64,000 bases of DNA from Candidatus Shapirobacteria bacterium (GTDB taxonomy: Bacteria > Patescibacteriota > Microgenomatia > UBA12405): assembly GCA_030698565.1 (NCBI GenBank), contig JAUYJS010000008.1, positions 161,275 to 225,274 on the forward strand, in the 5' to 3' direction. A model generated the notes under the pieces. That model had not been told where the DNA came from. It did no database searches and saw only the letters and a list, made by a program, of their open reading frames with translations. Shown here one piece after another: positions 30,289 to 57,622 of the stretch. How positions within the stretch are numbered: the stretch's first letter is position 1; every line of letters begins with the position of its first letter. The translations under genes were made by a program, and so were the position numbers.

Positions 30289-31374
30289 ATGGTTGTCACT
30301 CTAGACTTTTCAAAGATTAAAAAAACATTAGTAGCTCAGGCTAAAAAGCTTCACTATCTCACAAATGAAGAAATTATAGGCCAAGTTCCAGAGCCAGAAA
30401 AATACATTCCTCAGCTCGATGATCTCTTCGATTACCTGTTTGAACAAGGGATTGATGTTTTCGACAAGGTAGAATCCAAAGAAATTATAGAAATAGAAAA
30501 GGAAAAATTAAGCTCTTCCGATTTTCTAAATCTTTTAACTCAAAAAGCCAATGTTGATTCGGTTAGGATGTATCTAAAAGAAATCGGTAAAATCGACCTT
30601 TTGAATTTTGACGAAGAAGTTAGATTAGCCAAAGCTATTGAAAAAGGTTCTGCAGATGCTCGGGAAAAATTAATTAATGCCAATTTAAGATTAGTTGTTT
30701 CTATCGCCAAAAAATATATCGGTCGCGGTTTAACTTTCCTCGATTTGGTTCAGGAAGGTAACCAGGGTTTAATGCGGGCAGTCGAAAAATTTGACTGGAA
30801 GCGCGGCTTTAAATTTTCTACCTATGCCACTTGGTGGATTCGCCAAGCTATTACCCGTGCCATTGCCGATCAGGCCAAGACTATTCGTATCCCCGTCCAT
30901 ATGGTCGAAACTATCAACAAAGTTTACAAGGCCACTCGGGCTCTCACTCAGCGCTTAGGCCACGAACCAGAAATCGAGCAAATTGCCGAAGAAGTCGGCA
31001 TCACTGTTGAAAAAGTCGAAGAAATTTATAGAATTTCCCAGGATACTACCTCGCTTTCTACTCCAGTAGGCGACGATGAGGATTCATTTTTGGGAGATTT
31101 TATTGAAGACACTACTCAGCCATCTCCCTATGAAGAAACTTCCAAAGAATTACTTCGTGAATCTATTGAAGAAGTTTTGGGTTCTTTAGACGAAAGGGAA
31201 ATGAAAGTTTTAAGTCTTCGTTTTGGTCTGATGGGTGAGACTCCAAAAACTCTAGAAGAAGTCGGCAAAATTTTCAACGTCACTCGCGAGCGTATTCGCC
31301 AAATCGAAGCCAAGGCTTTGCGAAAACTCCGCCATCCTAGTCGTAGAAAAAAACTCCAAGATTATTTGGAATAA
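30289..31374 (+). CDS. rpoD: RNA polymerase sigma-70 factor (primary sigma)
   Basis: Region 2 [37 protein letters not shown]...[13 protein letters not shown]; region 4 [27 protein letters not shown]. Confidence 0.85.
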
Positions 31375-31466
31375 AATAACTTTTCTGGAATCGGCCGAAA
31401 TACAAGACAGTATTAATATTACACAATATATTTTAATATTTGGTATTTTTGTGTACAATTCTAAAT

Positions 31467-34400
31467 ATGAATTGTATATATGACACGTTTACAAATCTCT
31501 ATTCATTATCAAAAACACTTAAATTTGAACTTATACCAGAACCAGCTACTCTTAAAATACTTAAAGAAAAACAAATAATTCAAAAAGATTTTGAGCTTAA
31601 TGAAAATTATCAAAAAGTAAAGCCAATTTTTAATCAGATTCATTCAGAATTTATAGAAGAAAGTTTAGGTTCAGCCGTTAACAGCCAAATTAATTGGAAT
31701 GAATATTTTGAGATTTATAAAATAGGAAAAAATGAAAAAGATAAAGCTAAATTAGATAGTCTTAGAAAAGAGAAAACATTAATTGAAAAAAAACTTCGAA
31801 GTGAAATAACTAAATTGTTTAATGTTACCTCCGAAAAATGGAAATCAAATCCCGAATATGTAGACGATAGAGGAAAATGCTTATTTAAAAAAAATGGGCC
31901 TGAAATTCTGGCAGAAAAAGGAATTTTAAAACTTTTATATATCAAATATCAAAACAAATCAGGATTGGAATTATTAAAAAGTTTTGATTCATTTTTTACA
32001 TATTTTTCTGGATTTAATCAAAATCGAGAAAACTATTATTCCAGTGATGAAAAATCAACAGCTATTAGTTATCGTATTGTTCATGAAAATTTACCTAAGT
32101 TTTGTGAAAATTTATTAGATTATCAAAATAAAATTAATCAAAACATTACTATTGATAATCTAGATATCTTCGATATTAATTATTTTAATGAATGTCTGTC
32201 CCAGAAAGGAATAAATAAATATAACCAAGCAATCGGCGGATTTCGAGATGAATCAGATATAGCTAGCTTTAAAGTCCAAGGTATTAATGAAAAAATAAAC
32301 TTATATTTTCAAAAAACAAAGCAAAAACTTCCCAAGCTCAAATTTTTATATAAACAAATTGGTGTAATCCAAGAAAAGAAAGAGTTGTTTTTTTTAATTG
32401 ACGGTCACGACCATACTTTAAAAAACACACTAGAATTGTGTTTAAAAGAAAGTACTCTATATAACCAAAGAATAAATGATCTCGTTTGTTCAATTTTGAG
32501 GGCCGAAAACTTAGATCAAATATACCTTTCTAAAGCTGCATTAAACACTATTCAAAGAAAGTACTTCAATAATTGGCAGGTTGTCGAGGATGAATTTATA
32601 AATCAAAAATTATTTACCAAAAAGAAAAATAAAGAGGAAATCAGACTAACTATTCCAGAATTTATATCAATCGATAAATTCAAATTTGTATTTAATAATT
32701 TATCTGAAATAGACGCAAAAGATATTTTCAAAGAAAAATATCAAAACTTATTCATATTAAAAAACAAGTTTGATATTTTTGTAAAAATTATCGAACAAGA
32801 ATTCTCTTGGAATTATTTAGAATTTAATCAATCATTAGAAAATAAAAAATTATTTAGTGATAGCGAATGGAACAGGGTTACTTGGGTATTAGCTAAAACT
32901 AATCTTGAAAAAATTATCAACAATTTAAGTGAAAAACCAGATACTGAACAAAAAAATATTATTAAAACATTTTTAGATTCTTCATTAGTATTGTTACAGA
33001 TGCTTAAGTACTTTAAGATTAAAGAATCAGGGGTAGGTATCGTAAATTGGGATGGTGATTTTTATAATGAGTTAGACAATATCACACAAAGTTATCCACT
33101 GTTTAAGTGGTATGATGCAGTTCGCAATTATTTAACAAGAAAACCGTTTTCTGAAGATAAAATAAAAGTTAATTTTGAAAAAGGCAATTTACTTGGTGGT
33201 TGGCCAGATAGTCCAGAAGGTAATACTCAATATGGAGGTTTCATTTTTAGAAAAAATAACAACTATTTCTTAGGCATATCGCAAGACGCGAGACTATTTG
33301 ATCTAACAAAAAATCCAAATTCTCACAATAATGATGGCTCGTTTGAAAAAATGGATTTAAAACAATTAGACGGAAAAACGATATATGGATCAATTTATGG
33401 TGGTAAATACCAAACAAAATATGCCAAAGATAAGGATAATATTTCAAACTATGAATTGATAAAAAGAGTTAAAGATATTCTAAAAGAAAAAAGCACGTAT
33501 TTTCCACAATTAAATCAAATTATTGATGGTGATTTTGACGACCCAAAAAAACTTGCTACAGAAATTTCTTCAAAAACTTTATATTCAATAGACTTTTTTA
33601 AAGTTAGTGAAAATTATATTAACGAAGTTACTAGTCGAACCAACAAACCTCTTTATTTATTTAAAATATCCAATAAGTATCTTAAAAATTCAAACCAAAA
33701 TAATAAAAATAACTTACACACTAAGTTTTTTTTAAAACTTTTTGAAAAACAAAACAACGAATCTCTATTTAAGCTGTGTGGTGGGGGAGAAATATTCTTT
33801 AGAAAAGCATCTGTTGATCAAAAAATAGATGAATCTAGAAAAACATCGATTAAAATAGTCAAAAACAAAAGATATACAGAAGATAAGTATTTTTTTCATG
33901 TACCAATTGCGCTAAATGCAACTAAGCCGGGTTATTATAAAGATTTTAATAAAAGAATTAATGAAGATTTGATAGGCAATAAAAATAATGTTCATATTAT
34001 CGGTATTGATCGAGGAGAAAAGCATTTAGCTTACTATTCAGTCATCAACCAAAAAGGAGAAATTGTTGAACAAGGTTCGTTAAATAAAGATTTATTAGGT
34101 AAAGATTACGGTGAAAAACTTGAATTTATTGCAAAAGAAAGAGAAAAAGCCAGAGAAAATTGGGATCAAATTAATAAAATAAAAGATTTGAAAGATGGTT
34201 ATATCTCACAAGTTACAAAGAGAATCTCTGACCTGGTAATAAAACATAATGGTATTGTAGTTTTTGAAGATCTAAACTCAGGATTTAAAAGAGGTCGTCA
34301 AAAAATAGAAAAATCAGTTTATCAAAAACTAGAACTTGCTCTAATTAAAAAACTTAATTATTTAGTTGATAAAAATAAGCACGACGGAGAAACATTATCA

Positions 34401-35180
34401 GTCACCAACGCTTTACAGCTTACACCCCCAACTGATAATTTTGGAGAAATAAAAGGGAAACAATGGGGAATCATTTTTTATACAACAGCAGCCTATACAT
34501 CAGTTACTGACCCTATTACTGGTTTTAGAAAAAATATATATCTTAAAAAATCAGCAAAGAATATCATGCGAGAAAATATTTTAAAGTTAGACAATATAAT
34601 TTTTGATCAAAATAATTTATGTTTCCGTTTTGATTATTCATTAAATAAGTTTCAAAAAGATACTAGTAATAAAAAATGGAGTTGCTATACCCATGTTGAT
34701 CGAATATGTAATGAATACGATAAAAAAATAAATAAATGGGTCCCAACCTCAATTTGCCTCACAGAAAAATTAAACGATCTTTTTAAATCAGAGAATATAG
34801 ATATTAATAAAAATATTATTGAACAAATAAAAAACAAAGAAAATCTAAACAATAAATTTTATGAAGACTTAACTTTCTACATTAATTTACTATTTCAACT
34901 TAGAAATTCCAATTCTTCAAAAGAGATTGATTTTATTTACTCTCCAATAGAACCCTTTTTTGACAGCAGAAAATATCAACAAGAAGGTCAAAATCTTGAT
35001 TTTACAGAGAAAGCCAAATTACCTGTTCATGGGGACTCAAACGGTGCTTACAATATTGCTCGCAAGGGCTTAATAATGTTTAAAAGAATTAAACTAACTC
35101 CAGATAAGCCTGATCTTTTTATTGGAAATGAATATTGGGATTGTGTAGCGCAGAATTGGGAGGAATTTATAAGATCATAA
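31467..35180 (+). CDS. cas12a: Cas12a (Cpf1), type V-A CRISPR effector (1237 aa from ATG 31467)
   Basis: N-terminal FTNLYSLSKTLKFELIP; RuvC-I IIGIDRGEKHLAY; RuvC-II IVVFEDLNSGFKRGR; RuvC-III HGDSNGAYNIARKG; matching Cas12a repeats downstream. Confidence 0.9.
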   Translation: MNCIYDTFTNLYSLSKTLKFELIPEPATLKILKEKQIIQKDFELNENYQKVKPIFNQIHSEFIEESLGSAVNSQINWNEYFEIYKIGKNEKDKAKLDSLRKEKTLIEKKLRSEITKLFNVTSEKWKSNPEYVDDRGKCLFKKNGPEILAEKGILKLLYIKYQNKSGLELLKSFDSFFTYFSGFNQNRENYYSSDEKSTAISYRIVHENLPKFCENLLDYQNKINQNITIDNLDIFDINYFNECLSQKGINKYNQAIGGFRDESDIASFKVQGINEKINLYFQKTKQKLPKLKFLYKQIGVIQEKKELFFLIDGHDHTLKNTLELCLKESTLYNQRINDLVCSILRAENLDQIYLSKAALNTIQRKYFNNWQVVEDEFINQKLFTKKKNKEEIRLTIPEFISIDKFKFVFNNLSEIDAKDIFKEKYQNLFILKNKFDIFVKIIEQEFSWNYLEFNQSLENKKLFSDSEWNRVTWVLAKTNLEKIINNLSEKPDTEQKNIIKTFLDSSLVLLQMLKYFKIKESGVGIVNWDGDFYNELDNITQSYPLFKWYDAVRNYLTRKPFSEDKIKVNFEKGNLLGGWPDSPEGNTQYGGFIFRKNNNYFLGISQDARLFDLTKNPNSHNNDGSFEKMDLKQLDGKTIYGSIYGGKYQTKYAKDKDNISNYELIKRVKDILKEKSTYFPQLNQIIDGDFDDPKKLATEISSKTLYSIDFFKVSENYINEVTSRTNKPLYLFKISNKYLKNSNQNNKNNLHTKFFLKLFEKQNNESLFKLCGGGEIFFRKASVDQKIDESRKTSIKIVKNKRYTEDKYFFHVPIALNATKPGYYKDFNKRINEDLIGNKNNVHIIGIDRGEKHLAYYSVINQKGEIVEQGSLNKDLLGKDYGEKLEFIAKEREKARENWDQINKIKDLKDGYISQVTKRISDLVIKHNGIVVFEDLNSGFKRGRQKIEKSVYQKLELALIKKLNYLVDKNKHDGETLSVTNALQLTPPTDNFGEIKGKQWGIIFYTTAAYTSVTDPITGFRKNIYLKKSAKNIMRENILKLDNIIFDQNNLCFRFDYSLNKFQKDTSNKKWSCYTHVDRICNEYDKKINKWVPTSICLTEKLNDLFKSENIDINKNIIEQIKNKENLNNKFYEDLTFYINLLFQLRNSNSSKEIDFIYSPIEPFFDSRKYQQEGQNLDFTEKAKLPVHGDSNGAYNIARKGLIMFKRIKLTPDKPDLFIGNEYWDCVAQNWEEFIRS

Positions 35181-35734
35181 TGGATGGATTAATTCAAATT
35201 TCTAAAATAAATGATTTTTTATTTTGTCCTATGTCGTTATACAACCATAGTATTTATGAGAGCTTTGATCAAAAAATGTTTCATAGTAAATACCAAACCA
35301 TTGGCAAAATCAAACACGAAAGCATTGATAATGGCAAATACTCTTCGTTAAAAAGATTTTTGCAAGGGAATACTGTCTATTCACAAAAGTACAATATTAT
35401 CGGAAAAATAGATATTTATGATACTAAAACAAAATCACTTATTGAAAGAAAATTTAAAATTAACCATATATATAAAGGATATGTCTATCAGCTAATTGCT
35501 CAATATTTTTGTCTGGTTGAAAAAAACATATCTGTCGAGCACTTATTCTTACACTCACTTAAAGACAATAAAAGATATGAGGTGAATCTTCCTGACCAAA
35601 TAGTTGAAGCTGATTTTAGTTTATTTTTAAGAAAGATTAGAAATTTCAATCCAAATCAAATAACTTTCGTTGCTGAGAAGAAAAAATGTTTACAATGTAT
35701 TTATTCAACTTTGTGTAATTACAATCCATGCTAA
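35180..35734 (+). CDS. cas4: Cas4 (RecB-like nuclease with 4-Cys Fe-S cluster)
   Basis: ATG overlaps cas12a TAA (TAATG); N-terminal Cys (FLFCPM) plus C-terminal CLQCIYSTLC; IDIYD...LIERKFK nuclease motifs. Confidence 0.8.
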   Translation: MDGLIQISKINDFLFCPMSLYNHSIYESFDQKMFHSKYQTIGKIKHESIDNGKYSSLKRFLQGNTVYSQKYNIIGKIDIYDTKTKSLIERKFKINHIYKGYVYQLIAQYFCLVEKNISVEHLFLHSLKDNKRYEVNLPDQIVEADFSLFLRKIRNFNPNQITFVAEKKKCLQCIYSTLCNYNPC

Positions 35735-36687
35735 CTTTCCCAGATTTTTCACAAAAGAGAATAGTTATTGTTGGTAATAATGGCAATGTCACCAGCAATC
35801 TAAAATTCTATAATAGCAATATCCGATTATATTACGGGGAAAAATTTATTGATCAAGTTTCCTGTTACTCAGTTATATGTTTATTTATTGTCGGAGACAC
35901 CACCTTAACCACAAAATTAATTAAAAAAGCTAAAGAGTATGGAATTTCAATTTTTTTACTTAGCAATAATTTAAAAAACTATGCAGAAATATTTTCCAGT
36001 GCCGAGGGAAATTATAAACTGAGACAGAAACAATACCAGACATCTGAGCAAAGTGAGTTGGTGCTATCAAGACTTATTGTAAAAAACAAAATTAAAAACC
36101 AACTCCTCCTCTTGCAGGAAAAAAATATCAATGAATTTAATAAAAAATTTAATTCTATTCTTGAAAATATAGACAGTGTAGATGACAGACAACTACTACT
36201 TGGAATAGAAGGAAATACTTCAAGTCTTTATTTTGGCGCAATTTATAAAGACCATGATTGGCATAGGCGAGCACCACAAGCAAAAGAAGATCCGTTAAAC
36301 CTATTGCTTGATGTTGGTTATACTCTTATTTTTAACTATATTGACTCAGTACTTCATCTTTTTGGTTTTGATACCTACAAAGGTTTTTATCATAAACTAT
36401 TTTTTGAACGCAGATCACTAAGCTGCGACATGATGGAACCTCTTAGACCAATAATTGATCGGCAAATATTAAAGATGTTTAACTTAAAACAAATTAATGA
36501 AAAAGATTTTTATTTGAAGGATTGCTCATATTCATTTAAAGATTTTGAATCAGCCAATAAATATTCTAATCATATCTTAGAAGCAGTCTTAAAACAAAAG
36601 GAACCAATCTATGATTTCGTTTACTCATTTTATCGCCATATTCAGGAACCAGAAAAACATAATTTTATTGAATTTAGCCCGCTATGA
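35728..36687 (+). CDS. cas1: Cas1 integrase
   Basis: 319 aa, position and size; overlaps cas4 stop and cas2 start. Confidence 0.8.
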   Translation: MLTFPDFSQKRIVIVGNNGNVTSNLKFYNSNIRLYYGEKFIDQVSCYSVICLFIVGDTTLTTKLIKKAKEYGISIFLLSNNLKNYAEIFSSAEGNYKLRQKQYQTSEQSELVLSRLIVKNKIKNQLLLLQEKNINEFNKKFNSILENIDSVDDRQLLLGIEGNTSSLYFGAIYKDHDWHRRAPQAKEDPLNLLLDVGYTLIFNYIDSVLHLFGFDTYKGFYHKLFFERRSLSCDMMEPLRPIIDRQILKMFNLKQINEKDFYLKDCSYSFKDFESANKYSNHILEAVLKQKEPIYDFVYSFYRHIQEPEKHNFIEFSPL

Positions 36688-36965
36688 TAATCGTTGCATA
36701 TGATTTTGTATCAAACAAAAAACGTGCTAAGTTTTCTAAGTTTTTAAAGCAATACGGTGAAAAAATTCAATATTCAGTTTACAAAATAAAAAATAGTGAT
36801 CGTGTTTTAAACAATATAATTAGCGAAATTGAACATAAATATGAAAGAACCTTTGACAATACTGATAGTATCTTCCTATTTCGGGTCTGCCAACGATGCC
36901 AGAAATCATTGAAACTTTATGGCAACGCAAAACATCATCGAGAAAATGTGGTAAACTTGGGTTAG
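36684..36965 (+). CDS. cas2: Cas2
   Basis: 93 aa; MIIVAYDFVSNKKRAKFSKFLKQYGEKIQYSVY typical Cas2 N-terminus. Confidence 0.8.
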   Translation: MIIVAYDFVSNKKRAKFSKFLKQYGEKIQYSVYKIKNSDRVLNNIISEIEHKYERTFDNTDSIFLFRVCQRCQKSLKLYGNAKHHRENVVNLG

Positions 36966-37159
36966 AACTTTAAAAATACGACAAAATAGAAGTTATTGTG
37001 CGTAATTAAAACCTAAGTCTTTATTTTTCTTTAAAAATAGAGCAAATTATAAAATTAGACCATATATAAGGGTAATTTTATATCTATCATTATATGGATA
37101 AAGTCCTAAAAATAAAATTTTTAGTTGCATCTTTTTCCCATAAGATAGGTAAACCAGCT

Positions 37160-37570
37160 CCTAATTACGAATATTAAATTTCTACTTTTGTAGATATTTA
37201 AGCCATCTTCTATAACCTTTTCCTAATTACGAATATTAAATTTCTACTTTTGTAGATGGTAACTCTAGTGCTTATAGTGTTGTAGCCTAATTACGAATAT
37301 TAAATTTCTACTTTTGTAGATATTGTGTAACCAGTCAAATAAGACTTTCCTAATTACGAATATTAAATTTCTACTTTTGTAGATTCTAGGTGTTTAGTGG
37401 TTTGGGTTGCCTAATTACGAATATTAAATTTCTACTTTTGTAGATTACTCGTGGTGCATACCCTGAATTAGACCTAATTACGAATATTAAATTTCTACTT
37501 TTGTAGATACTAATGTAATAAAAAGTATTACCATCCTAATTACGAATATTAAATTTCTACTTTTGTAGAT
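37160..37570 (+). CRISPR. CRISPR array, 7 repeats of 36 bp (CCTAATTACGAATATTAAATTTCTACTTTTGTAGAT), 6 spacers of 25-28 bp
   Basis: Repeats at 37160, 37222, 37286, 37349, 37410, 37473, 37535, all identical; 3' end AATTTCTACTTTTGTAGAT is the canonical Cas12a crRNA handle; AT-rich leader 36966..37159. Confidence 0.95.
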
Positions 37571-37596
37571 TAATATTCATTTTTTTCTATTTAATA

Positions 37597-37716
37597 GAAG
37601 AAGTCGGCAAAATTTTCAATGTTACTCGCGAGCGTATTCGTCAAATCGAAGCCAAAGCTTTAAGAAAATTAAGACATCCCTCGAGAAGAAAAAAACTCCA
37701 AGATTATTTGGAATAA
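37597..37716 (+). pseudogene. relic duplicate of the last 39 codons plus stop of rpoD (direct repeat of 31255..31374)
   Basis: 120 bp with about 12 substitutions versus 31255..31374, all synonymous; in-frame translation [39 protein letters not shown] is identical to the RpoD C-terminus. Confidence 0.85.
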
Positions 37717-37896
37717 ATACTTCAGCCTTAATAATTTCAATGCTATAATCAAGCTTATCAATCCATCCTTTAATAGAGCCTGGTTTAACTCGCACATTTA
37801 AATATATTTTTCTTTTAGATTAATATTCCCAACGTAATTTCGACTTTGTCGAAAAACGTTGTTGGAACGTTAATTTTTCGAAGAAAAATTTTACGT

Positions 37897-38018
37897 TCCC
37901 CTGTAGCCTTTATCATTCCGTAGCCTTGGCGAAGGATGATCAATGGTAGAGGAAAATATTCCCCTGTAGCTCAATGGTAGACCTGCCTGCCGGCAGGCAG
38001 GGCGCCCGCCTGTTAAGC
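37897..38018 (+). repeat. two tandem partial copies of the tRNA-Asn 5' portion, each with an internal insertion
   Basis: Copy i 37897..37950 = TCCCCTGTAGC + 32-bp insert + TCAATGGTAGA; copy ii 37960..38018 = tRNA nt 1-22 + 20-bp perfect palindrome CCTGCCTGCCGGCAGGCAGG + tRNA nt 23-39. Confidence 0.7.
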
Positions 38019-38024
38019 TTATTC

Positions 38025-38309
38025 ATGTACTTTGTTTACATCTTGAAAAGTTTAAAAACAGACGAGCTCTATAAAGGTATTACCAATGACTTACAAAGAA
38101 GGATTATTGAGCATAATTCAAATAAGAATATCGGCTCCCGTGGTAAAGGGCCATGGCGATTAGTATATTTTGAAGAACACTCAAATCGAATTGAAGCCAG
38201 AAAACGAGAAAAATATTTTAAGTCCGGTTCTGGCCGGGAATTTTTAAAAATCATACTAAACACAATCCCCTGTAGCTCAATGGTAGAGCGCCCGCCTGTT
38301 AAGCGGTAG
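38025..38309 (+). CDS. small GIY-YIG nuclease-domain protein (about 95 aa from ATG 38025)
   Basis: MYFVYILKSLKTDELYKGITNDLQRRIIEHN...GPWRLVYFEEHSNRIEARKREKYFKSGSGREFL = GIY-YIG/URI domain (Y-V-Y, R, E, N); stop lies 44 nt inside the tRNA-Asn gene. Confidence 0.65.
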   Translation: MYFVYILKSLKTDELYKGITNDLQRRIIEHNSNKNIGSRGKGPWRLVYFEEHSNRIEARKREKYFKSGSGREFLKIILNTIPCSSMVERPPVKR

Positions 38310-38337
38310 GTTCGAGGTCCGAATCCTCGCGGGGGAG
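38266..38337 (+). tRNA. tRNA-Asn (anticodon GUU)
   Basis: TCCCCTG-TA-GCTC-AATGGTA-GAGC-G-CCCGC-CTGTTAA-GCGGT-AGGT-TCGAGG-TCCGAAT-CCTCG-CGGGGGA-G; U33, GTT, A37; starts UCC... like E. coli tRNA-Asn. Confidence 0.75.
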
Positions 38338-39900
38338 CAAAGCGGAACACTCAGGTTCCGAAGAAGCATAATACTTGGAAACTTTCGTTAAATCATACTG
38401 TTCGAAAATTTCTTTATCGTTATTCATCAATTTTTCTATATTCGAACTATTTGTTCGTTTAGCTAGTGCTAAAAGAGATTTAAATCCCGGTGTTAATGTG
38501 TAGAATACCTTGTCAATATCAAGTTCAATAGTGTCGAATACTTTTTTCATCAATTGTCTTTTCTCATTCGGTTCGACTTTTAAAAACGACGCCTTACCGT
38601 TCTGAGAAATCTCGTAAATTCTTACTCCCAGATCAGTAGTTTTTTGTATCGCCTCTGTTTGTTTGACAATATGTTTATCCAGCTCCGTTAAGTCACCGGA
38701 GAACTTTTTAGCAAGAATGTTGTATTGATCTTCCGAAATCTTACCATCCAACTTATCAATATATGCTTCACTTAATCTATTAGTGTAAATTTTTCTCGAT
38801 TTTTCTAATTCCTTTACCGAATCAAGATACAAGTCGGATTCGCTATTGTTCGTTTCTTTTAATGCCTTTTTCAGCCACTCTCTAACTTTTAGGCTGTCAA
38901 TTTTAAACTCATCGAGTACATTTCCAATACATTCTTCCACAACAATTTCCTTTGACCATTTTCGCTTAGGGCAATTTCGGTAATGATTACAATGGCCGTA
39001 CATTATTCCCTTGGCCTGTTCCCAGGTAATTGTTCCGTGACATTCATGACACTTAAAAACGCCTTTAAATTTGTAGTCATGTTTGCTGTATTTTGGGGTA
39101 TTCTTTGAACTAAGTATCCTTTGAACTTTATCAAACAGTTCTCGATCAATGATGGGTTCTTGTTTACCTTTGTGAATTTCACCTTTCCACATAAAGTCGC
39201 CTATATAAAACGGATCTCTCAGCAGCCGATGCATCCGACTCTTATGGACCAGCTTACCACTATCACTTTTCATACCTAATGTGTGCATTTCTTTGGATAA
39301 TTTAAGTATGGAATAAGTGCCGGTCCCATACAACTCAAACATCTTTTGGAGAATTGACGCAACTTCCGGATTAACCACATGAATTTTATGACCTTGTTCG
39401 CCTATTGTTTTATAACCATAAGGTGGTTTGGTAGGCAACCACCCTTCGCTTATCTTTTCCTTCTGACCTTTCTTTACCTCTTCACTTAGATTATCTAAAT
39501 AATACTGAGCCACTGATACTTTGATATTCCAAATAAACTTCTCGTTAGATTTAGAATTTTTATGTAGAATCACATTCTCTTTCACAAAATGAACCTGTTT
39601 TTCTTCATCATCTTCAATCCATTGGTTGATAATAACAGCGTCCCTAATGTTTCTTGTAAGCCGGTCGGTTTTTTCTACAACTAAGTTCTTTATTTTTTTT
39701 GATCTCAAATAATCCAACATTTCTTCAAAGAGCTTTCTTTGTTTGCTTCCGCCTGCTGACTCAGAAAGCGAAAACACCCTATCTATTTGAAGTCCTTTTG
39801 ACTGACAATACTCCGTTAATAATTTTTCCTGGGAGGGGAGAGAATAGCCTGTTTCTTCTTGCTCCTTAGAACTGACCCTACAAAGTAATACTGTTTTCAT
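38299..39900 (-). CDS. large serine recombinase (phage/ICE-type serine integrase)
   Basis: N-terminal resolvase catalytic domain MKTVLLCRVSSKEQ (Ser nucleophile), recombinase domain, Cys-rich zinc ribbon CHECHGT...CNHYRNC, coiled-coil C-terminus; 3' end overlaps tRNA-Asn 3' end. Confidence 0.85.
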   Translation of the reverse strand: MKTVLLCRVSSKEQEETGYSLPSQEKLLTEYCQSKGLQIDRVFSLSESAGGSKQRKLFEEMLDYLRSKKIKNLVVEKTDRLTRNIRDAVIINQWIEDDEEKQVHFVKENVILHKNSKSNEKFIWNIKVSVAQYYLDNLSEEVKKGQKEKISEGWLPTKPPYGYKTIGEQGHKIHVVNPEVASILQKMFELYGTGTYSILKLSKEMHTLGMKSDSGKLVHKSRMHRLLRDPFYIGDFMWKGEIHKGKQEPIIDRELFDKVQRILSSKNTPKYSKHDYKFKGVFKCHECHGTITWEQAKGIMYGHCNHYRNCPKRKWSKEIVVEECIGNVLDEFKIDSLKVREWLKKALKETNNSESDLYLDSVKELEKSRKIYTNRLSEAYIDKLDGKISEDQYNILAKKFSGDLTELDKHIVKQTEAIQKTTDLGVRIYEISQNGKASFLKVEPNEKRQLMKKVFDTIELDIDKVFYTLTPGFKSLLALAKRTNSSNIEKLMNNDKEIFEQYDLTKVSKYYASSEPECSALLPREDSDLEPTA

Positions 39901-42421: not shown

Positions 42422-43000
42422 ATGAAAATAAAAAAAGATAAAATTGACTCAACGGAATTATGTAGACTTGCTTTGAAACTTTATGAAGAAAACACGGATG
42501 AATCAAAAAAGGAGTTGTTAAAAAAGAATCTTCAATATGCCTATGAAGCTATTCCTAAAGCTCGTAGGAGATATGTACTGGGAGATATGGACATTCACGA
42601 CTCTCCGATTCGAGACATTCTCTATGGTGAACACAACATGGTCAGTTGGGATTATCGGAGATATGTAGCCGATAATGGTGAGCTGTATCTACCTCACTTT
42701 AATGAATCTCATCAAAAAATAGAATATGTCCGAAAATCAGGTTACATAAACAATTCCAATCCTCCGGAAGACATTGCCATGTTTGCCGAAACTGTTGATC
42801 TAGTAAGAAGATCAGGTGTTGTCAGTTTTCCTAAAATAATGAGGCATTTTCTAGTTGGGTATGCCAAAGCTAGACGCTTAATAGATGAGTTAGGAAAAGC
42901 AGCAGTAATAAGTACGGTTACAAATGATACTGAACCAGGAAAGGTGTTGATCGAACATGGAAACAACATGAGTGCTTGGGATTTTCCGAAAACCAAATAA
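42422..43000 (+). CDS. FtsK-gamma-like winged-helix DNA-binding domain protein
   Basis: C-terminal VDLVRRSGVVSFPKIMRHFLVGYAKARRLIDELGKAAVIS matches FtsK gamma (...SASLLQRRLRIGYNRAARLIEQME...). Confidence 0.55.
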   Translation: MKIKKDKIDSTELCRLALKLYEENTDESKKELLKKNLQYAYEAIPKARRRYVLGDMDIHDSPIRDILYGEHNMVSWDYRRYVADNGELYLPHFNESHQKIEYVRKSGYINNSNPPEDIAMFAETVDLVRRSGVVSFPKIMRHFLVGYAKARRLIDELGKAAVISTVTNDTEPGKVLIEHGNNMSAWDFPKTK

Positions 43001-43019
43001 ATTGATACCCAGAATCGAC

Positions 43020-43410
43020 CAAAATCGACCATTTTCTCCCTCTAGCAACCCACCAAAACCAGCCATTTTCGGCCATTTTAGCTATGGATATTTACTAAAA
43101 ATTCATTATAAATCACCATATTTCACCACATTTAGCTATATAAAACCCACCAAAAACCACCATTTTCTACCATTTTTAGCTTTAAATGATTAGCGAGAAA
43201 CCATTAAAAACCACTATATTTCACCACTTTTCCCTATAAAAATCGACCATTTTCGACTATTTTTTAAGCTAGAAAGTCTTGTTTTGTCGTGATATTACCT
43301 ATCAAAACCCATGATTTTCCATGTTTTTTAGCTTCAAATCATATATAAAAAACCTAATTTTTATATCAAAAATCGGTGTTTTTCGGTAATTTTCCTATCT
43401 TATCTGCCAT
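43020..43410. repeat. iteron-like array: about 8 degenerate direct repeats (about 45-60 bp period) built from paired half-sites NNCCATTTTC ... CCATTTTTAGCT
   Basis: e.g. CGACCATTTTCTCCC, AGCCATTTTCGGCCATTTTAGCT, CACCATTTTCTACCATTTTTAGCT, CGACCATTTTCGACTATTTTTTAAGCT, CCCATGATTTTCCATGTTTTTTAGCT in a non-coding 450-bp stretch. Confidence 0.6.
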
Positions 43411-43607: not shown

Positions 43608-45326
43608 ATGGTAAATATAAATGAATATGCAAACTTTATTTGGTCGGTAGCTGATACTTTAAGAGGCGATTACAAACAAGCTGACTACGGAAAAGTGATT
43701 TTACCTTTGACTGTTATCAGGAGACTAGATAGTGTTCTTTCAGATACCAAGGAAAATGTATTAAAAAGCTATGAATCCCAAAAAATAACCAATCTTCAAG
43801 AAGCTGATTTAGTACTCAATAAAATTGCCGGATACAAATTCCATAACCATAGTAAATTTGATTTTAGTAAATTGATTTCGGACCCGGATAATATCGTTTC
43901 AAATTTGAGAAATTACATTAACGGATTTTCCGAAAATGCCAGAGATATTTTAGAAAACTTTGAATTCGACAAAGAGATTCATAAACTGGATAAAGCCAAT
44001 CTCCTTTATCAAGTTGTAAAACAATTTCAGGAAATTAACTTACATCCCAGCAAAATAAATAATCATGAAATGGGTTATTTGTTTGAAGAACTGATCAGAA
44101 AGTTTGCTGAAGCATCAAATGAAACCGCCGGAGAACATTTCACACCCAGAGAAGTTATCAAGTTGATGGTCAACATCCTTTTTATTTCTGATAGTAATAT
44201 CCTTCGTGGTGACGGAATTATTAAAACCCTTTATGATCCTGCCTGTGGAACTGGTGGCATGATGTCGGTTGCTGAAGAGTATTTAAAAGAACTCAATCCA
44301 GACGCTAGACTTGAACTATTTGGACAAGAACTTAACCCAGAGTCTTATGCTGTTTGTAAGTCCGACATGTTGATAAAAGTTCAAGACCCGGACCACGTAA
44401 AATTGGGTGATACTTTGAGGAATGATCAGTTAAGGACCGAAAAATTTGATTACATGCTTTCAAATCCTCCGTTCGGAGTTAATTGGAAAAAGGCGGAGAA
44501 AGAAGTTAAGCAAGAATACGAGGATCTAGGATTTGGAGGAAGGTTTGGGGCTGGTCTTCCTAGTATCAGCGATGGATCAATGCTTTTTCTTCAACACATG
44601 GTTTCAAAAATGAAACCCACCAATGGAGGTTCCCGACTAGCGATTGTATTTAATGGCTCTCCACTATTCTCTGGTAGTGCTGGTAGTGGTCCCAGCGAGA
44701 TTAGAAGATGGATTATTGAAAACGATATGCTCGAAGCAATAATCGCTCTTCCGGACCAACTTTTTTATAACACCGGTATTTCTACATACATATGGGTTGT
44801 AACGAACAGAAAATCCATCGAAAGAAAAGGAAAGGTCCAGCTTATAAATGCTGTCTCATCCTATAAGGTGATGAGAAAGAAACTAGGCGATAAAAGAAAT
44901 GAAATAGGAACCGAGGATATTGATAAAATTGTCAGCTTATATGGGGAATTTAGTGATTCAAAATTCTCAAAGATATTTGATAATTCTGATTTTGGATATT
45001 CCCAATTAACAGTCGAAAGACCACTCAAAGACGAAAAAGGAAACATTATTAAAGACACAAAAGGCAAACCAAAAGCCGATCCTAAATTAAGGGACTCCGA
45101 AAATGTTCCATTAAAAGAAGATATTCAAGAATACTTCAAAAGAGAGGTGGTCCCATTTGTTCCAGATGCCTGGATAGATGAATCCAAAACTAAAGTTGGC
45201 TACGAAATCAATTTCACTAAGTACTTTTACGAGTATAAGCCACTTCGATCACTTGAAGAGATAACTAAAGACATTTTGGAATTAGAAAAAGAAAGTGATG
45301 GGTTATTGAAAGAAATTACTAAATAA
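43608..45326 (+). CDS. hsdM: type I restriction-modification system, methyltransferase subunit HsdM
   Basis: N-terminal HsdM_N; motif I DPACGTGGM; motif IV LSNPPFG. Confidence 0.9.
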   Translation: MVNINEYANFIWSVADTLRGDYKQADYGKVILPLTVIRRLDSVLSDTKENVLKSYESQKITNLQEADLVLNKIAGYKFHNHSKFDFSKLISDPDNIVSNLRNYINGFSENARDILENFEFDKEIHKLDKANLLYQVVKQFQEINLHPSKINNHEMGYLFEELIRKFAEASNETAGEHFTPREVIKLMVNILFISDSNILRGDGIIKTLYDPACGTGGMMSVAEEYLKELNPDARLELFGQELNPESYAVCKSDMLIKVQDPDHVKLGDTLRNDQLRTEKFDYMLSNPPFGVNWKKAEKEVKQEYEDLGFGGRFGAGLPSISDGSMLFLQHMVSKMKPTNGGSRLAIVFNGSPLFSGSAGSGPSEIRRWIIENDMLEAIIALPDQLFYNTGISTYIWVVTNRKSIERKGKVQLINAVSSYKVMRKKLGDKRNEIGTEDIDKIVSLYGEFSDSKFSKIFDNSDFGYSQLTVERPLKDEKGNIIKDTKGKPKADPKLRDSENVPLKEDIQEYFKREVVPFVPDAWIDESKTKVGYEINFTKYFYEYKPLRSLEEITKDILELEKESDGLLKEITK

Positions 45327-45329
45327 ATA

Positions 45330-46622
45330 ATGACTTATAAATCAGACACCTCGACTTGGAATACTAAAAAATTGAAGTATGTTACTTGTATCAATTCAGA
45401 GGTGCTAAGAGAAAATAAAGATAAAGAGCAAGAAATAAGTTATATAGACATCAGTTCGGTAAATTCAGACGGTAGAATTAAAAAAATCGAGAAAGTCAAA
45501 TTTGGAGTAGCACCTTCAAGGGCAAGAAGAATCGTTAAGAAAGGGGATGTGATTATATCAACCGTAAGAACTTATTTAAGAGCCATTGCTTCCATTAAAG
45601 AAAACATTGATGATTTAATTGTATCTACTGGTTTTGCTGTATTACGAGCCGGAAATGAAATATCACCAGATTTTCTGAAATACGCTATATTAAATCCAGA
45701 TTTTATCGACAAGATAATGGCTAACTCAAAAGGAGTAAGCTATCCTGCAATTAGTAGTTCTGACTTGGCAAACTTGGCAATTTCGTACCCGTACAAAAAG
45801 GAAACACAAGATTTAATAAGTAGATACTTAAATTATAAAACCTCTCTTATAGACTCCTTAGTTCAAAAAAATGAAAAACTAATTAAACTTTTGGAAGAGA
45901 AAAAAGCAGCAATTATTAGTCAGACCATAACAAAAGGGTTAAATACGGATGTCGAGATGAAAGACAGTGTAGTTGAATGGGTTGGAAAAATACCAAAAGT
46001 GTGGAAAGTGGAGCCAGTTTCTTTAAACTTCAAAGAGAATAAAATCAAGAATAGTAATCTCCAAGAGAAAAATTTACTCTCACTTAGTTACGGAAAAATT
46101 ATAAAGAAAAACATTCTTTCAAATTTCGGTTTATTACCAGAATCGTTCTCAAATTACCAAATAGTTGAAAAAGATTGCATTATATTAAGACTTACAGATC
46201 TTCAAAACGATAAAAGAAGTTTAAGAGTAGGCTACGTACCTGAAAGAGGAATAATTACATCCGCTTATATTGGTCTAACCCCAAAAAGCAATCTAAATTC
46301 CAAATATATTTATTACTTGCTTCACAGTTATGATTTAAAGAAAGTGTTTTATAACTTAGGTTCTGGTGTAAGACAAAGTTTAACTTACTTTGATTTTAAA
46401 AAGCTTCCATTGATTATCCCTACAAGTGAAGAGCAAGAAAAAATTGTGGAGCATGTTGAGGTAGGGATAAGAAAAATTAGTGATTCAATTAACTATATTG
46501 ATAAGCAAATAAAATTATTAGAAGAATATCGCAAAACACTTATCTCAAATGTGGTCACTGGAAAAACTGATGTTAGAGATGAAAAAATTCCAGAAAGTGG
46601 GATAAAATACAACTATGCCTAA
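45330..46622 (+). CDS. hsdS: type I R-M specificity subunit HsdS (two target-recognition domains)
   Basis: 430 aa, follows hsdM by 3 bp; two TRD-like halves separated by the conserved central coiled-coil. Confidence 0.8.
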   Translation: MTYKSDTSTWNTKKLKYVTCINSEVLRENKDKEQEISYIDISSVNSDGRIKKIEKVKFGVAPSRARRIVKKGDVIISTVRTYLRAIASIKENIDDLIVSTGFAVLRAGNEISPDFLKYAILNPDFIDKIMANSKGVSYPAISSSDLANLAISYPYKKETQDLISRYLNYKTSLIDSLVQKNEKLIKLLEEKKAAIISQTITKGLNTDVEMKDSVVEWVGKIPKVWKVEPVSLNFKENKIKNSNLQEKNLLSLSYGKIIKKNILSNFGLLPESFSNYQIVEKDCIILRLTDLQNDKRSLRVGYVPERGIITSAYIGLTPKSNLNSKYIYYLLHSYDLKKVFYNLGSGVRQSLTYFDFKKLPLIIPTSEEQEKIVEHVEVGIRKISDSINYIDKQIKLLEEYRKTLISNVVTGKTDVRDEKIPESGIKYNYA

Positions 46623-56956: not shown

Positions 56957-57622
56957 ATGTCTCGAGTTTTTTTAATCATCTCTCTAATCATTAATGCCAT
57001 TTTAGGTTTTTTATTTCTTCGTCCCCGTCCAGTTATCCCAAATCTCTATCAAGTCGATCGCGTCATCGATGGCGACACTTTTATTGTCAAAGAAGGAGAC
57101 TTGTCTGCCGGCAGGCAGATTCGTCTTATGAGTGTCAACTCTCCCGAAGTCGGTCTTTGCGGCAGTGCAGAAGCCACAGCTAAATTAAAAGAATTAATTG
57201 ATGGTAAAAAAGTTCGATTAGTCGGTGATCTCAATGATCATTATGGTCGTCTCTTGGCTCTGGTTTATGTTGACGATCAATTAATTAACAAAGAAATAAT
57301 TCTTTCCGGCTGGGCCCGTTTCACTTCAACTGCATCTTCAGAATCCGAAAATTTAAAATCCGCTTTTCAAAAGATAAAAACCGAAAAATTGGGAGTTTTT
57401 AGTTCCAAGTGTTATCAAACCACCAACCCTCAAAATCCAAAATGTAACATCAAAGGAAATGTCAAAGAAGGTAAAAAAATTTATTTTTTCCCCGGTTGTG
57501 GCAATTACAGCAATGTCGCCCTCGAACTAGATCAAGGCGATCAATGGTTCTGTTCCGAATCCGCTGCCACCTCCGCCGGTTTTACCAAAAGCGCCAATTG
57601 TTATGCGAAAGTGTATTACTAA
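56957..57622 (+). CDS. thermonuclease (staphylococcal nuclease, SNase-like) with N-terminal anchor and Cys-rich C-terminal extension
   Basis: VIDGDTFIV...RLMSVNSPE...YGRLLALVYVDD...NKEIILSGWA = SNase core; contains the CTGCCGGCAGGCAG palindrome in-frame (DLSAGRQ). Confidence 0.7.
   Translation: MSRVFLIISLIINAILGFLFLRPRPVIPNLYQVDRVIDGDTFIVKEGDLSAGRQIRLMSVNSPEVGLCGSAEATAKLKELIDGKKVRLVGDLNDHYGRLLALVYVDDQLINKEIILSGWARFTSTASSESENLKSAFQKIKTEKLGVFSSKCYQTTNPQNPKCNIKGNVKEGKKIYFFPGCGNYSNVALELDQGDQWFCSESAATSAGFTKSANCYAKVYY

Follow-up and report, generated by a model that had tools for sequence, protein, structure and literature searches.

A 64,000-nucleotide stretch of a Candidatus Shapirobacteria genome bin (contig JAUYJS010000008.1, positions 161,275 to 225,274; hereafter the window) carries a minimal GIY-YIG nuclease gene (protein P0001, 100% identical) between an intact tRNA-Asn gene and partial copies of the same tRNA, one of which is split by a perfect palindrome of 20 base pairs (bp), here called PAL. 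We lean towards the view that this locus is a resident copy of a widespread homing-type selfish cassette living inside tRNA transcription units. We observed the anatomy of the unit, linkage to tRNA genes throughout the nuclease family, empty and occupied sites, tandem copies, purifying selection on the nuclease and covariation of hairpin type with nuclease clade.

The tRNA-Asn locus and its near relatives

The intact, functional tRNA-Asn(GUU) gene lies at 38266-38338 on the forward strand (ARAGORN; Rfam tRNA, 65.7 bits), at present on the downstream side of the cassette. It is preceded on the same strand by psi-1 and psi-2, each a partial copy of its 5′ portion. Psi-2 spans 37960-38018; its outer arm (37960-37981) matches tRNA nucleotides (nt) 1-22 in 22 of 22 positions, with a chance expectation of 0, and its inner arm (38002-38018) matches nt 23-39 in 17 of 17 positions (repeat D18), where the similarity stops. 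PAL, CCTGCCTGCCGGCAGGCAGG, splits psi-2 at 37982-38001 and has no strand assigned. Its insertion between tRNA nt 22 and 23 is clean, with neither target duplication nor deletion. The nuclease gene (38025-38309, forward strand; Pfam PF01541), an open reading frame (ORF) of 94 amino acids (aa) with a core of about 80 aa, lies between psi-2 and the tRNA, and 6 nt separate psi-2 from its ATG. It overlaps the tRNA by 44 nt, and the protein tail, an extra 14 residues, is translated from tRNA nt 1-44. In most relatives the protein ends ...IPL* on a TAG borne by the tRNA; this end is encoded by CCC CTG TAG, which is tRNA nt 2-10, and the tRNA thus supplies the stop codon. Because of a 1-nt frame difference the usual TAG (nt 8-10) is missed in the window, resulting in the 44-nt read-through, which is peculiar to this genome. 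A preliminary description of this DNA had listed the tRNA-Asn, two partial 5′ copies, the palindrome and an ORF with a 44-nt overlap; all are present, with the ORF 94 rather than 95 aa long.

Psi-1 (37897-37952, forward strand, by direct reading) is a partial copy without an ORF: 37897-37907 corresponds to tRNA nt 1-11, 37908-37939 is a 32-nt insert, and 37940-37951 corresponds to nt 12-23. It is preceded by the native leader of the tRNA-Asn transcription unit (37735-37896, forward strand), which contains, at about 37740-37748, the sequence gcTATAATc and shows homology with the leaders of the empty-site relatives L091 and L088. Since the leader directly precedes the intact tRNA in empty-site relatives (L088), psi-1 sits at the original tRNA position, and the same comparison places psi-2, the ORF and the working tRNA all downstream of it. 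Partial copies resembling psi-1, also lacking an ORF, were present in L090, L104 and L022.

Several smaller features accompany the locus. The leader contains a strong hairpin at 37864-37899 (-17.2 kcal/mol, z -5.8) that abuts psi-1, ending within its first bases. A very similar sequence stands before the intact tRNA in L088, and the hairpin may serve the tRNA unit as a leader element or a terminator. Just upstream of it, ATATTCCC may be a still older relic of a tRNA start. Scanning 37560-38420 for promoters and terminators gave nothing informative. The T-loop of the window tRNA-Asn (38313-38327) reads TCCGAAT, with C in place of the near-universal U55, as it does in L001 and L086; other relatives, e.g. 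L085, have the usual TTCGAAT. A group I intron or other known RNA was also considered and rejected, given that Rfam finds only an uninterrupted tRNA over 37000-39000 and that the ARAGORN tRNA is contiguous.

The order psi (nt 1-22), PAL, psi (nt 23 to about 39), ORF and intact tRNA-Asn is common to four loci (L001, L002, L103 and L003). PAL is identical and at the same tRNA position in L001, L002 and L103, and the proteins of L001 and L002 are 82% and 70% identical to that of the window. The window, L001 and L003 also have the upstream dnaG-rpoD synteny in common. In L002 and L103 the partial copy bears lineage-specific variants of the local tRNA, and in L003 extra partial copies with other hairpins occur on either side of the ORF. 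Unit length is constant at 301-308 nt (about 305 bp). Among the window, L001 and L002, synonymous differences (pS) amounted to 0.72-0.80, which is saturated, compared to 0.12-0.19 for nonsynonymous differences (pN), and PAL was identical in 20 of 20 positions throughout. The ratio dN/dS was about 0.05 where computable (window versus L001). The nuclease is under purifying selection. As the arrangement was inherited through synonymous saturation (L001, L002, L103), the window copy is old and does not reflect a recent hop.

A metagenome scan with a pattern spanning both junctions of an intact tRNA-Asn (same anticodon arm) yielded 39 loci, including 4 with the ORF, 2 with psi copies lacking it and 33 that were empty. 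In the four occupied loci, the psi copy lies at -301 to -308 nt. Upstream gene and leader are common to empty and occupied loci (L120, L085 and L101 versus L001; L112 versus L099; empty L088 and L091 versus the occupied window). Thus, in the comparison of empty with occupied sites proposed in the preliminary description, relatives with conserved flanks do have empty sites (33 of 39 loci). Empty and occupied alleles among close relatives, by which free-standing homing elements of the Seg or Mob type are recognized, were both found.

A tRNA-linked nuclease module in several phyla

The window protein matched the Pfam GIY-YIG family PF01541 with an E value of 7.7e-16 (58.6 bits, cut-off 22.6). Residues Y5, Y16, G18, R26, H30, N31 and E62, invariant in 22 homologues, are all present in it; an invariant Asn after the catalytic Glu (E62) is absent among these homologues, which are typically stand-alone domains of about 80 aa. 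When a family profile was compared with PDB sequences, the best matches were the UPF0213 proteins 1zg2 (BH0048; E 1.6e-13) and 1ywl (EF2693; 1.9e-10), followed by SLX1 (1.8e-5 to 1e-3), and I-TevI was marginal (0.05). Judged by sequence, the window protein belongs to the minimal Slx1/UPF0213 (YhbQ-like) clade and is a bare catalytic domain. A superfamily survey in 2006 described the prokaryotic Slx1-like lineage as a stand-alone domain without the conserved C-terminal Asn, viewed it as vertically inherited and related to repair, and placed selfish GIY-YIG enzymes in the UvrC-like lineage (PMC1564403).

The family profile matches 26,778 cluster representatives (50% identity). N-terminal extensions in many gene calls are translated PAL (LPAGRQ, PACRQA, CLPAGR) or translated tRNA (GSNP). 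Fused tandem copies of the small nuclease gene were seen in P0241 and P0242. P0243 (655 aa) contains two inserted GIY-YIG domains, each followed by a ..RQAG.. peptide reminiscent of translated PAL; from its sequence this protein looks like a type I restriction-modification specificity subunit. A family member is also carried by an isolate, Cellulophaga algicola DSM 14237.

We examined the loci of the best 80 tblastn matches (one genome per species, homologues 40-60% identical) together with other fetched loci, 98 homologous ORFs in 513 kilobases (kb). They came from Patescibacteria, Bacteroidota, Margulisiibacteriota, Ignavibacteria, Planctomycetes and Gammaproteobacteria, isolates included. 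A tRNA gene on the same strand is directly abutted by 72 of the 98 ORFs, of which 52 lie upstream (type U) and 20 downstream (type D) of it, and the adjoining tRNAs cover at least 15 isotypes. Type U ORFs end within a few dozen nt of the tRNA 5′ end, the stop codon being tRNA nt 8-10 in 15 loci, and type D ORFs start just past the tRNA. Several of the remaining 26 ORFs are at contig ends, and one follows a tmRNA: in L119 (614-1345) a family member starts about 135 nt past the tmRNA gene (614-986), suggesting that this tRNA-like gene can also host the cassette.

Type U ORFs are preceded, over the 60-120 nt up to the ATG, by a copy of the 5′ part of the same tRNA, which a GC-rich hairpin breaks up. 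Type D is the mirror form, with the intact tRNA, the ORF, a partial 3′ copy with a hairpin, and then the same terminator as after the intact tRNA. On the ORF side, the partial copy ends at various positions between about nt 27 and nt 68 of the tRNA. In the psi-side intervals, the density of GC-rich hairpins with perfect stems is 4.69/kb versus 0.115/kb, a 41-fold enrichment; these hairpins lie 15-25 nt before the ATG and differ in sequence by clade, and the stem stays perfect. Exact PAL occurs 18 times in these loci. Fourteen copies are 36-61 nt before an ATG and the other four adjoin intact tRNA genes, three of them within recognizable partial tRNA copies. PAL has been cleanly inserted, as 20 bp, at GGTA|GAGC or GGTAGA|GC, splitting the universally conserved tRNA D-loop block (GGTAGAGC in the window), and is found beside tRNA-Arg, Lys, Leu, Asn and His genes of different phyla, recurring exactly in Patescibacteria, Bacteroidota, Planctomycetes and Gammaproteobacteria. 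Other clades have TCCGCC..GGCGGA or TGCGCC..GGCGCA hairpins, often exactly inside the T-loop block GGTTC|GAATCC. Hairpin class tracks protein clade (PAL in 24 of 29 versus 0 of 10; Fisher p 4.7e-6, with shared ancestry ignored). Survey clusters 17, 18 and 20 have neither PAL nor GC-rich hairpins of the CCGCC/GCGCC type, and most of their members are without an adjacent tRNA; these clusters may be of a housekeeping kind.

The arms flanking the hairpins match the local tRNA. In 16 of the 17 PAL-type modules that could be placed, the outer arm is a perfect match over the 10 nt that border the hairpin. Outer arms had 42 mismatches to the tRNA and inner arms 84 (sign test p 0.005). Inner arms below 10 nt in length and errors in hairpin boundaries confound this asymmetry, and we take it only as consistent with a donor or recipient origin. 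L024 and L070 have tandem ORFs that are 100% identical, and in L022 a 3′ ORF end is duplicated. Many isotypes are occupied inside single genomes (L022, L038, L048), and nearest relatives cross phyla and isotypes, such as L025 (WWE3, Lys) and L005 (Bacteroidota, Arg) with 65% identity. The sequences of these tandems, of the duplicated ORF end and of the cross-phylum and cross-isotype neighbours indicate duplication and transfer. Spread by phages was considered as well and set aside: 50,697 phage records gave only 11 weak matches, and the one examined was not beside a tRNA.

These data bear on most of the earlier proposals. A minimal GIY-YIG element tied to a tRNA gene by duplication of part of its target, as suggested in the preliminary description, is borne out by the family-wide module; other small GIY-YIG ORFs flanked by partial tRNA copies are many (at least 15 isotypes, several phyla), and the identical tandems of L024 and L070 agree with repeated invasion. 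Both empty sites and further copies of the element exist, whose joint absence was to have counted against mobility. Three points need revision. The anticodon-loop boundary is not a general point of invasion, given the range of copy ends (about nt 27-68) and the mirror 3′ form. Rather than standing apart as an oddity, the palindrome is part of the module and conserved in it, and its type follows the nuclease clade. Finally, the protein is unlike classical homing endonucleases in that it falls in the Slx1/UPF0213 clade and has no DNA-binding domain, rather than being of the I-TevI or Seg type.

PAL is strongly tied to the module, yet not confined to it. The window has one copy and one relic in 64 kb. 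The relic is a 17/20 match at 57100-57119 (forward strand) in a thermonuclease gene, in frame and encoding ..LSAGRQ... It corresponds to an insertion, ..L(S/P)AGRQ.., of net five or six residues in the window and some orthologues (net +15 nt in the window), which is absent from the closest thermonuclease orthologues (84-87% identical). In the DNA alignment, PAL is matched at 17/20 positions in the window, 19/20 in L158 and 18/20 in L160, and L159 is free of the insert. On these graded matches and the insert-free L159, the motif is a decaying in-frame PAL. The idea of a small mobile palindrome in this gene is thus supported, and the second copy itself is real and in frame; its 14-nt core lies at 57105-57118 and not at 57108-57121, and is part of the 17/20 match. 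A search with this core gave seven matches at no more than two mismatches, against 0.02 expected.

Scanning 2.9 million viral contigs yielded 42 exact copies of PAL at 35 loci. One is in a canonical module and two are in the variable region of tRNA-Met. The other 39 have neither the nuclease gene nor a tRNA nearby and are mostly on high-GC contigs, ruling out that PAL is exclusive to the module. The PAL-bearing viral tRNA-Met genes lie at about 8571-8660 in L124 and 2239-2330 in L147; ARAGORN still calls the tRNA of L147, and such genes may accommodate PAL as a long extra arm. One viral contig of 29.5 kb has six exact copies (L143, L150, L151) and another has three (L129). Some viral copies are inside longer palindromes and some between short direct repeats (in L131, tctcgtctctcgct on both sides). 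This suggests that PAL can spread alone in some high-GC genomes.

Homing and alternative explanations

In the homing model we favour, the cassette is a gene for a nuclease of approximately 80 aa between the functional tRNA and psi, a redundant partial copy of the same tRNA. In the window, psi retains the original place behind the native leader, and the working tRNA lies downstream, presumably co-transcribed with the ORF. The nuclease would break tRNA genes at or near the conserved D-loop or T-loop blocks, and the break would be repaired by homologous recombination with the occupied allele as template. The recipient's own 5′ part would pair with the outer arm of psi, synthesis would continue through PAL, the inner arm, the ORF and the 5′ part of the tRNA, and the strand so made would re-anneal in the tRNA body. 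An empty tRNA gene would thereby become occupied and the tRNA would be kept. A cut in the resident intact copy, with the same repair, would give tandem units (psi-1 plus psi-2 here, ORF-ORF-tRNA elsewhere), and recombination between the repeats would restore empty sites. PAL, or the corresponding hairpin, would abolish the target block in psi and break up the direct repeat, and the fact that PAL is exactly conserved suggests binding by the nuclease as well. This model accounts for hairpin positions, both orientations, constant unit length, relics, tandems and occupancy.

A number of points weigh against it. We infer cleavage by the nuclease, the cut site, the repair pathway and the role of PAL from analogy and from the anatomy of the unit. 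Every characterized GIY-YIG homing endonuclease has a DNA-binding module, and free-standing homing endonucleases combine a catalytic with a sequence-tolerant DNA-binding domain, whereas this protein is a single catalytic domain of about 80 aa; how it locates tRNA genes is left unexplained by the model, as are the base-for-base conservation of PAL and the sparing of the working tRNA. That tRNA retains the presumed target block, and the model needs self-cutting to be either prevented or harmless enough to be tolerated. PAL also occurs away from the nuclease family (39 of 42 viral copies) and inside a protein gene. The survey, built on the best 80 tblastn matches, favours intact genes, and the statistic linking clade and hairpin ignores shared ancestry. 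In addition, the module has lasted in the clade of the window past synonymous saturation, with purifying selection, as would also be expected had it been domesticated.

Such domestication, which we consider unlikely, would make the nuclease an accessory with a cellular role at highly transcribed tRNA loci, e.g. at R-loops or stalled forks. Psi and hairpin would form a leader that merely regulates expression, and patchiness would reflect frequent loss via the flanking repeats; RNase P processing at a stop inside the tRNA would yield a non-stop mRNA. Besides purifying selection and long vertical persistence in the clade of the window, this explanation is favoured by the conserved synteny of dnaG-rpoD and the module in Shapirobacteria-like genomes, by the same YqeY-like upstream gene end in five Flavobacteriaceae loci (L005, L011, L013, L040, L045) and by the stop codon that tRNA nt 8-10 supply in 15 loci. 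Prokaryotic Slx1-like proteins have been viewed as vertically inherited repair factors (PMC1564403), and in T4 the translation of endonuclease genes is regulated by RNA hairpins that lie upstream of them (PMC2988022). However, the ORF is present at only 4 of the 39 loci sharing this tRNA-Asn arm, and identical tandems, relics without an ORF, many isotypes per genome and cross-phylum neighbours are hallmarks of selfish spread. A housekeeping role also gives no reason for the constant presence of a partial tRNA copy.

We regard as rather improbable a guide mechanism, in which psi and the hairpin, as transcript or DNA strand, direct a structure-specific nuclease. Both arms would anneal to the intact tRNA gene, on its complementary strand, leaving the hairpin extruded as a three-way junction, where the nuclease would cut. 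The target would be set by the tRNA fragment carried and not by recognition of DNA sequence by the protein. PAL would be the handle of the nuclease, sometimes deposited elsewhere, and the thermonuclease gene and the viral contigs would be cases of such deposition. This would explain how one small protein family serves at least 15 isotypes, and it agrees with a protein that has no DNA-binding domain and groups with structure-specific SLX1 and with UPF0213. Arms identical to the tRNA and carrying its lineage-specific variants on both sides of the hairpin, the perfect outer-arm 10 nt in 16 of 17 PAL-type modules, and a hairpin whose sequence varies by clade with a perfect stem, placed 15-25 nt before the ATG and hence in the 5′ part of the transcript, also fit. 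However, this evidence (arm identity, hairpin architecture) is purely circumstantial, and homing itself or gene conversion can yield arm identity too. Inner arms are often short or decayed (84 mismatches versus 42 in outer arms; 3/17 in L001), the exactness of PAL across phyla exceeds structural need, and PAL is also found away from any tRNA.

Returning to the locus itself, homing has also to be set against the islands on both sides of it. Upstream, a direct repeat of 123 bp, whose copies are 87% identical, stands on either side of a whole Cas12a CRISPR locus, at 31253-31375 and 37595-37717. The repeat is the 3′ end of the sigma-70 gene, its second copy being an orphan fragment. Between the repeats are Cas12a (31440-35180), cas4 (35135-35734), cas1 (35728-36687), cas2 (36684-36965) and an array that ends at 37571. 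In L086, L093 and L119 rpoD is directly followed by tRNA-Asn, which implies that the CRISPR island entered with a replacement gene end. Its entry appears from the sequence to follow the same logic of partial target duplication as the nuclease cassette.

On the other side, a large serine recombinase gene (38299-39900, reverse strand) reads into the tRNA from the opposite strand, its last 14 codons being antisense to the tRNA. Beyond it, to about 50070, are DUF5659 and FtsK-gamma-like genes and a type I restriction-modification system with hsdM (43608-45326) and hsdS (45330-46622). Downstream of the tRNA there is no synteny with L001; the limits of this recombinase island are hence not definable by comparison with L001, and it seems to form an island of its own at the 3′ end of the tRNA. 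At 43000-43350, upstream of hsdM and near a change in GC skew, there is a cluster of direct repeats, degenerate and AACCACCATTTTC-like, with a spacing of about 44-98 nt. A reading of 43.0-43.35 kb as an origin of replication (oriC) next to dnaA was withdrawn, the neighbours being hsdM and hsdS.

With a recombinase gene abutting the tRNA and mobile or defence islands flanking the locus on both sides, the partial copies could be taken as attachment sites of larger islands (that of the serine recombinase or the CRISPR island), with the nuclease as incidental cargo. We find this very improbable. It is contradicted by L001, L002 and L103, which carry the same psi-PAL-ORF-tRNA unit without the recombinase or the CRISPR island. 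Unit length is constant (301-308 nt), and the same architecture occurs at other tRNAs and in other phyla. An integrase island would have its own integrase within the bounding repeats, whereas the serine recombinase lies outside them.

Comparison with known systems

Integrative elements directed at tRNA genes rebuild the tRNA with sequence from the attachment site that they carry, duplicating part of it. Likewise, insertion of the cassette duplicates part of the tRNA and a functional tRNA is kept; unlike these elements, the cassette has no integrase, is about 305 bp long and duplicates either the 5′ or the 3′ part.

Small mobile GC-rich palindromes, which are lineage-specific, include the Rickettsia palindromic elements, the GC clusters of yeast mitochondria and REP sequences. 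Rickettsia palindromic elements insert in unrelated contexts, including in frame within protein genes, and PAL resembles them in its discrete insertion in unrelated contexts, one of them in frame in a protein gene. It differs from small mobile palindromes in being 20 bp long, identical across phyla, low-copy in the window and overwhelmingly tied to the tRNA modules of a single nuclease family. REP families have high genomic copy number, lineage-specific sequence and an associated transposase. In contrast, PAL is present as one copy plus a relic in the 64-kb window and is identical across phyla. Exact PAL was counted 18 times in 513 kb of module loci, against 42 times in 2.9 million viral contigs.

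In fungal mitochondrial DNA, free-standing homing-endonuclease ORFs lie between a functional gene and a partial terminal duplicate, as in the C-terminal duplications of cob and atp6 (PMC6279837). The cassette nuclease likewise lies between an intact gene and a partial duplicate, and the gene stays intact. The fungal ORFs differ in targeting organellar protein genes, in encoding enzymes of the LAGLIDADG or the long GIY-YIG type, and in that the duplicate is not split by a conserved palindrome.

Among protein families, the cassette nuclease is like Slx1/UPF0213 (YhbQ, COG2827) in its best-matching structures, its stand-alone domain and its lack of an invariant Asn after the Glu; unlike that lineage as described, cassette members are linked to tRNAs and patchily distributed. 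UPF0213/YhbQ-like proteins are a very large family without established function, and residence in selfish tRNA cassettes offers a testable role for many of them. Culturable Flavobacteriia among the survey loci, such as Zunongwangia pacifica, Aequorivita capsosiphonis and Paucihalobacter ruber, have the system. In addition, tRNA genes of streamlined Patescibacteria and of Bacteroidota can hide partial copies and ORFs that stop inside the tRNA, and both mislead gene callers. That a palindrome of 20 bp should be the same at every base in different phyla calls for an explanation, one possibility being a new principle of recognition or guidance in minimal nucleases.

SegB, which is far longer than 80 aa and carries DNA-binding modules, appears to be the nearest known analogue of the cassette that has been studied experimentally. 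It is encoded by a free-standing GIY-YIG homing endonuclease gene of the Seg group in the T4/T6 tRNA cluster (PMC2988022) and cuts inside tRNA genes at RAWTSGAAC (PMC13096335), a motif that corresponds to the opposite strand of the T-loop block. Recombination proteins are needed for the tandem amplification of the tRNA together with segB, and the gene is enriched beside tRNAs of many isotypes (PMC13096335) and is inherited preferentially (PMC2988022, PMC13096335). As in SegB, the nuclease gene of the cassette lies beside tRNAs of many isotypes and tandem units occur, and the hairpins sit in the T-loop or D-loop block. Unlike SegB, the cassette protein has about 80 aa, is of the Slx1/UPF0213 type, is chromosomal in several bacterial phyla and is rare in cultured phages. 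A partial tRNA copy split by a conserved palindrome is not described for SegB in these two papers. In the full-text literature, which leaves much subscription literature outside, we found no small GIY-YIG gene described as lying among partial tRNA copies in a bacterial chromosome and no mention of the palindrome. The cassette is apparently undescribed, and the kind of element to which it belongs, the free-standing GIY-YIG homing elements associated with tRNA genes, is already known.

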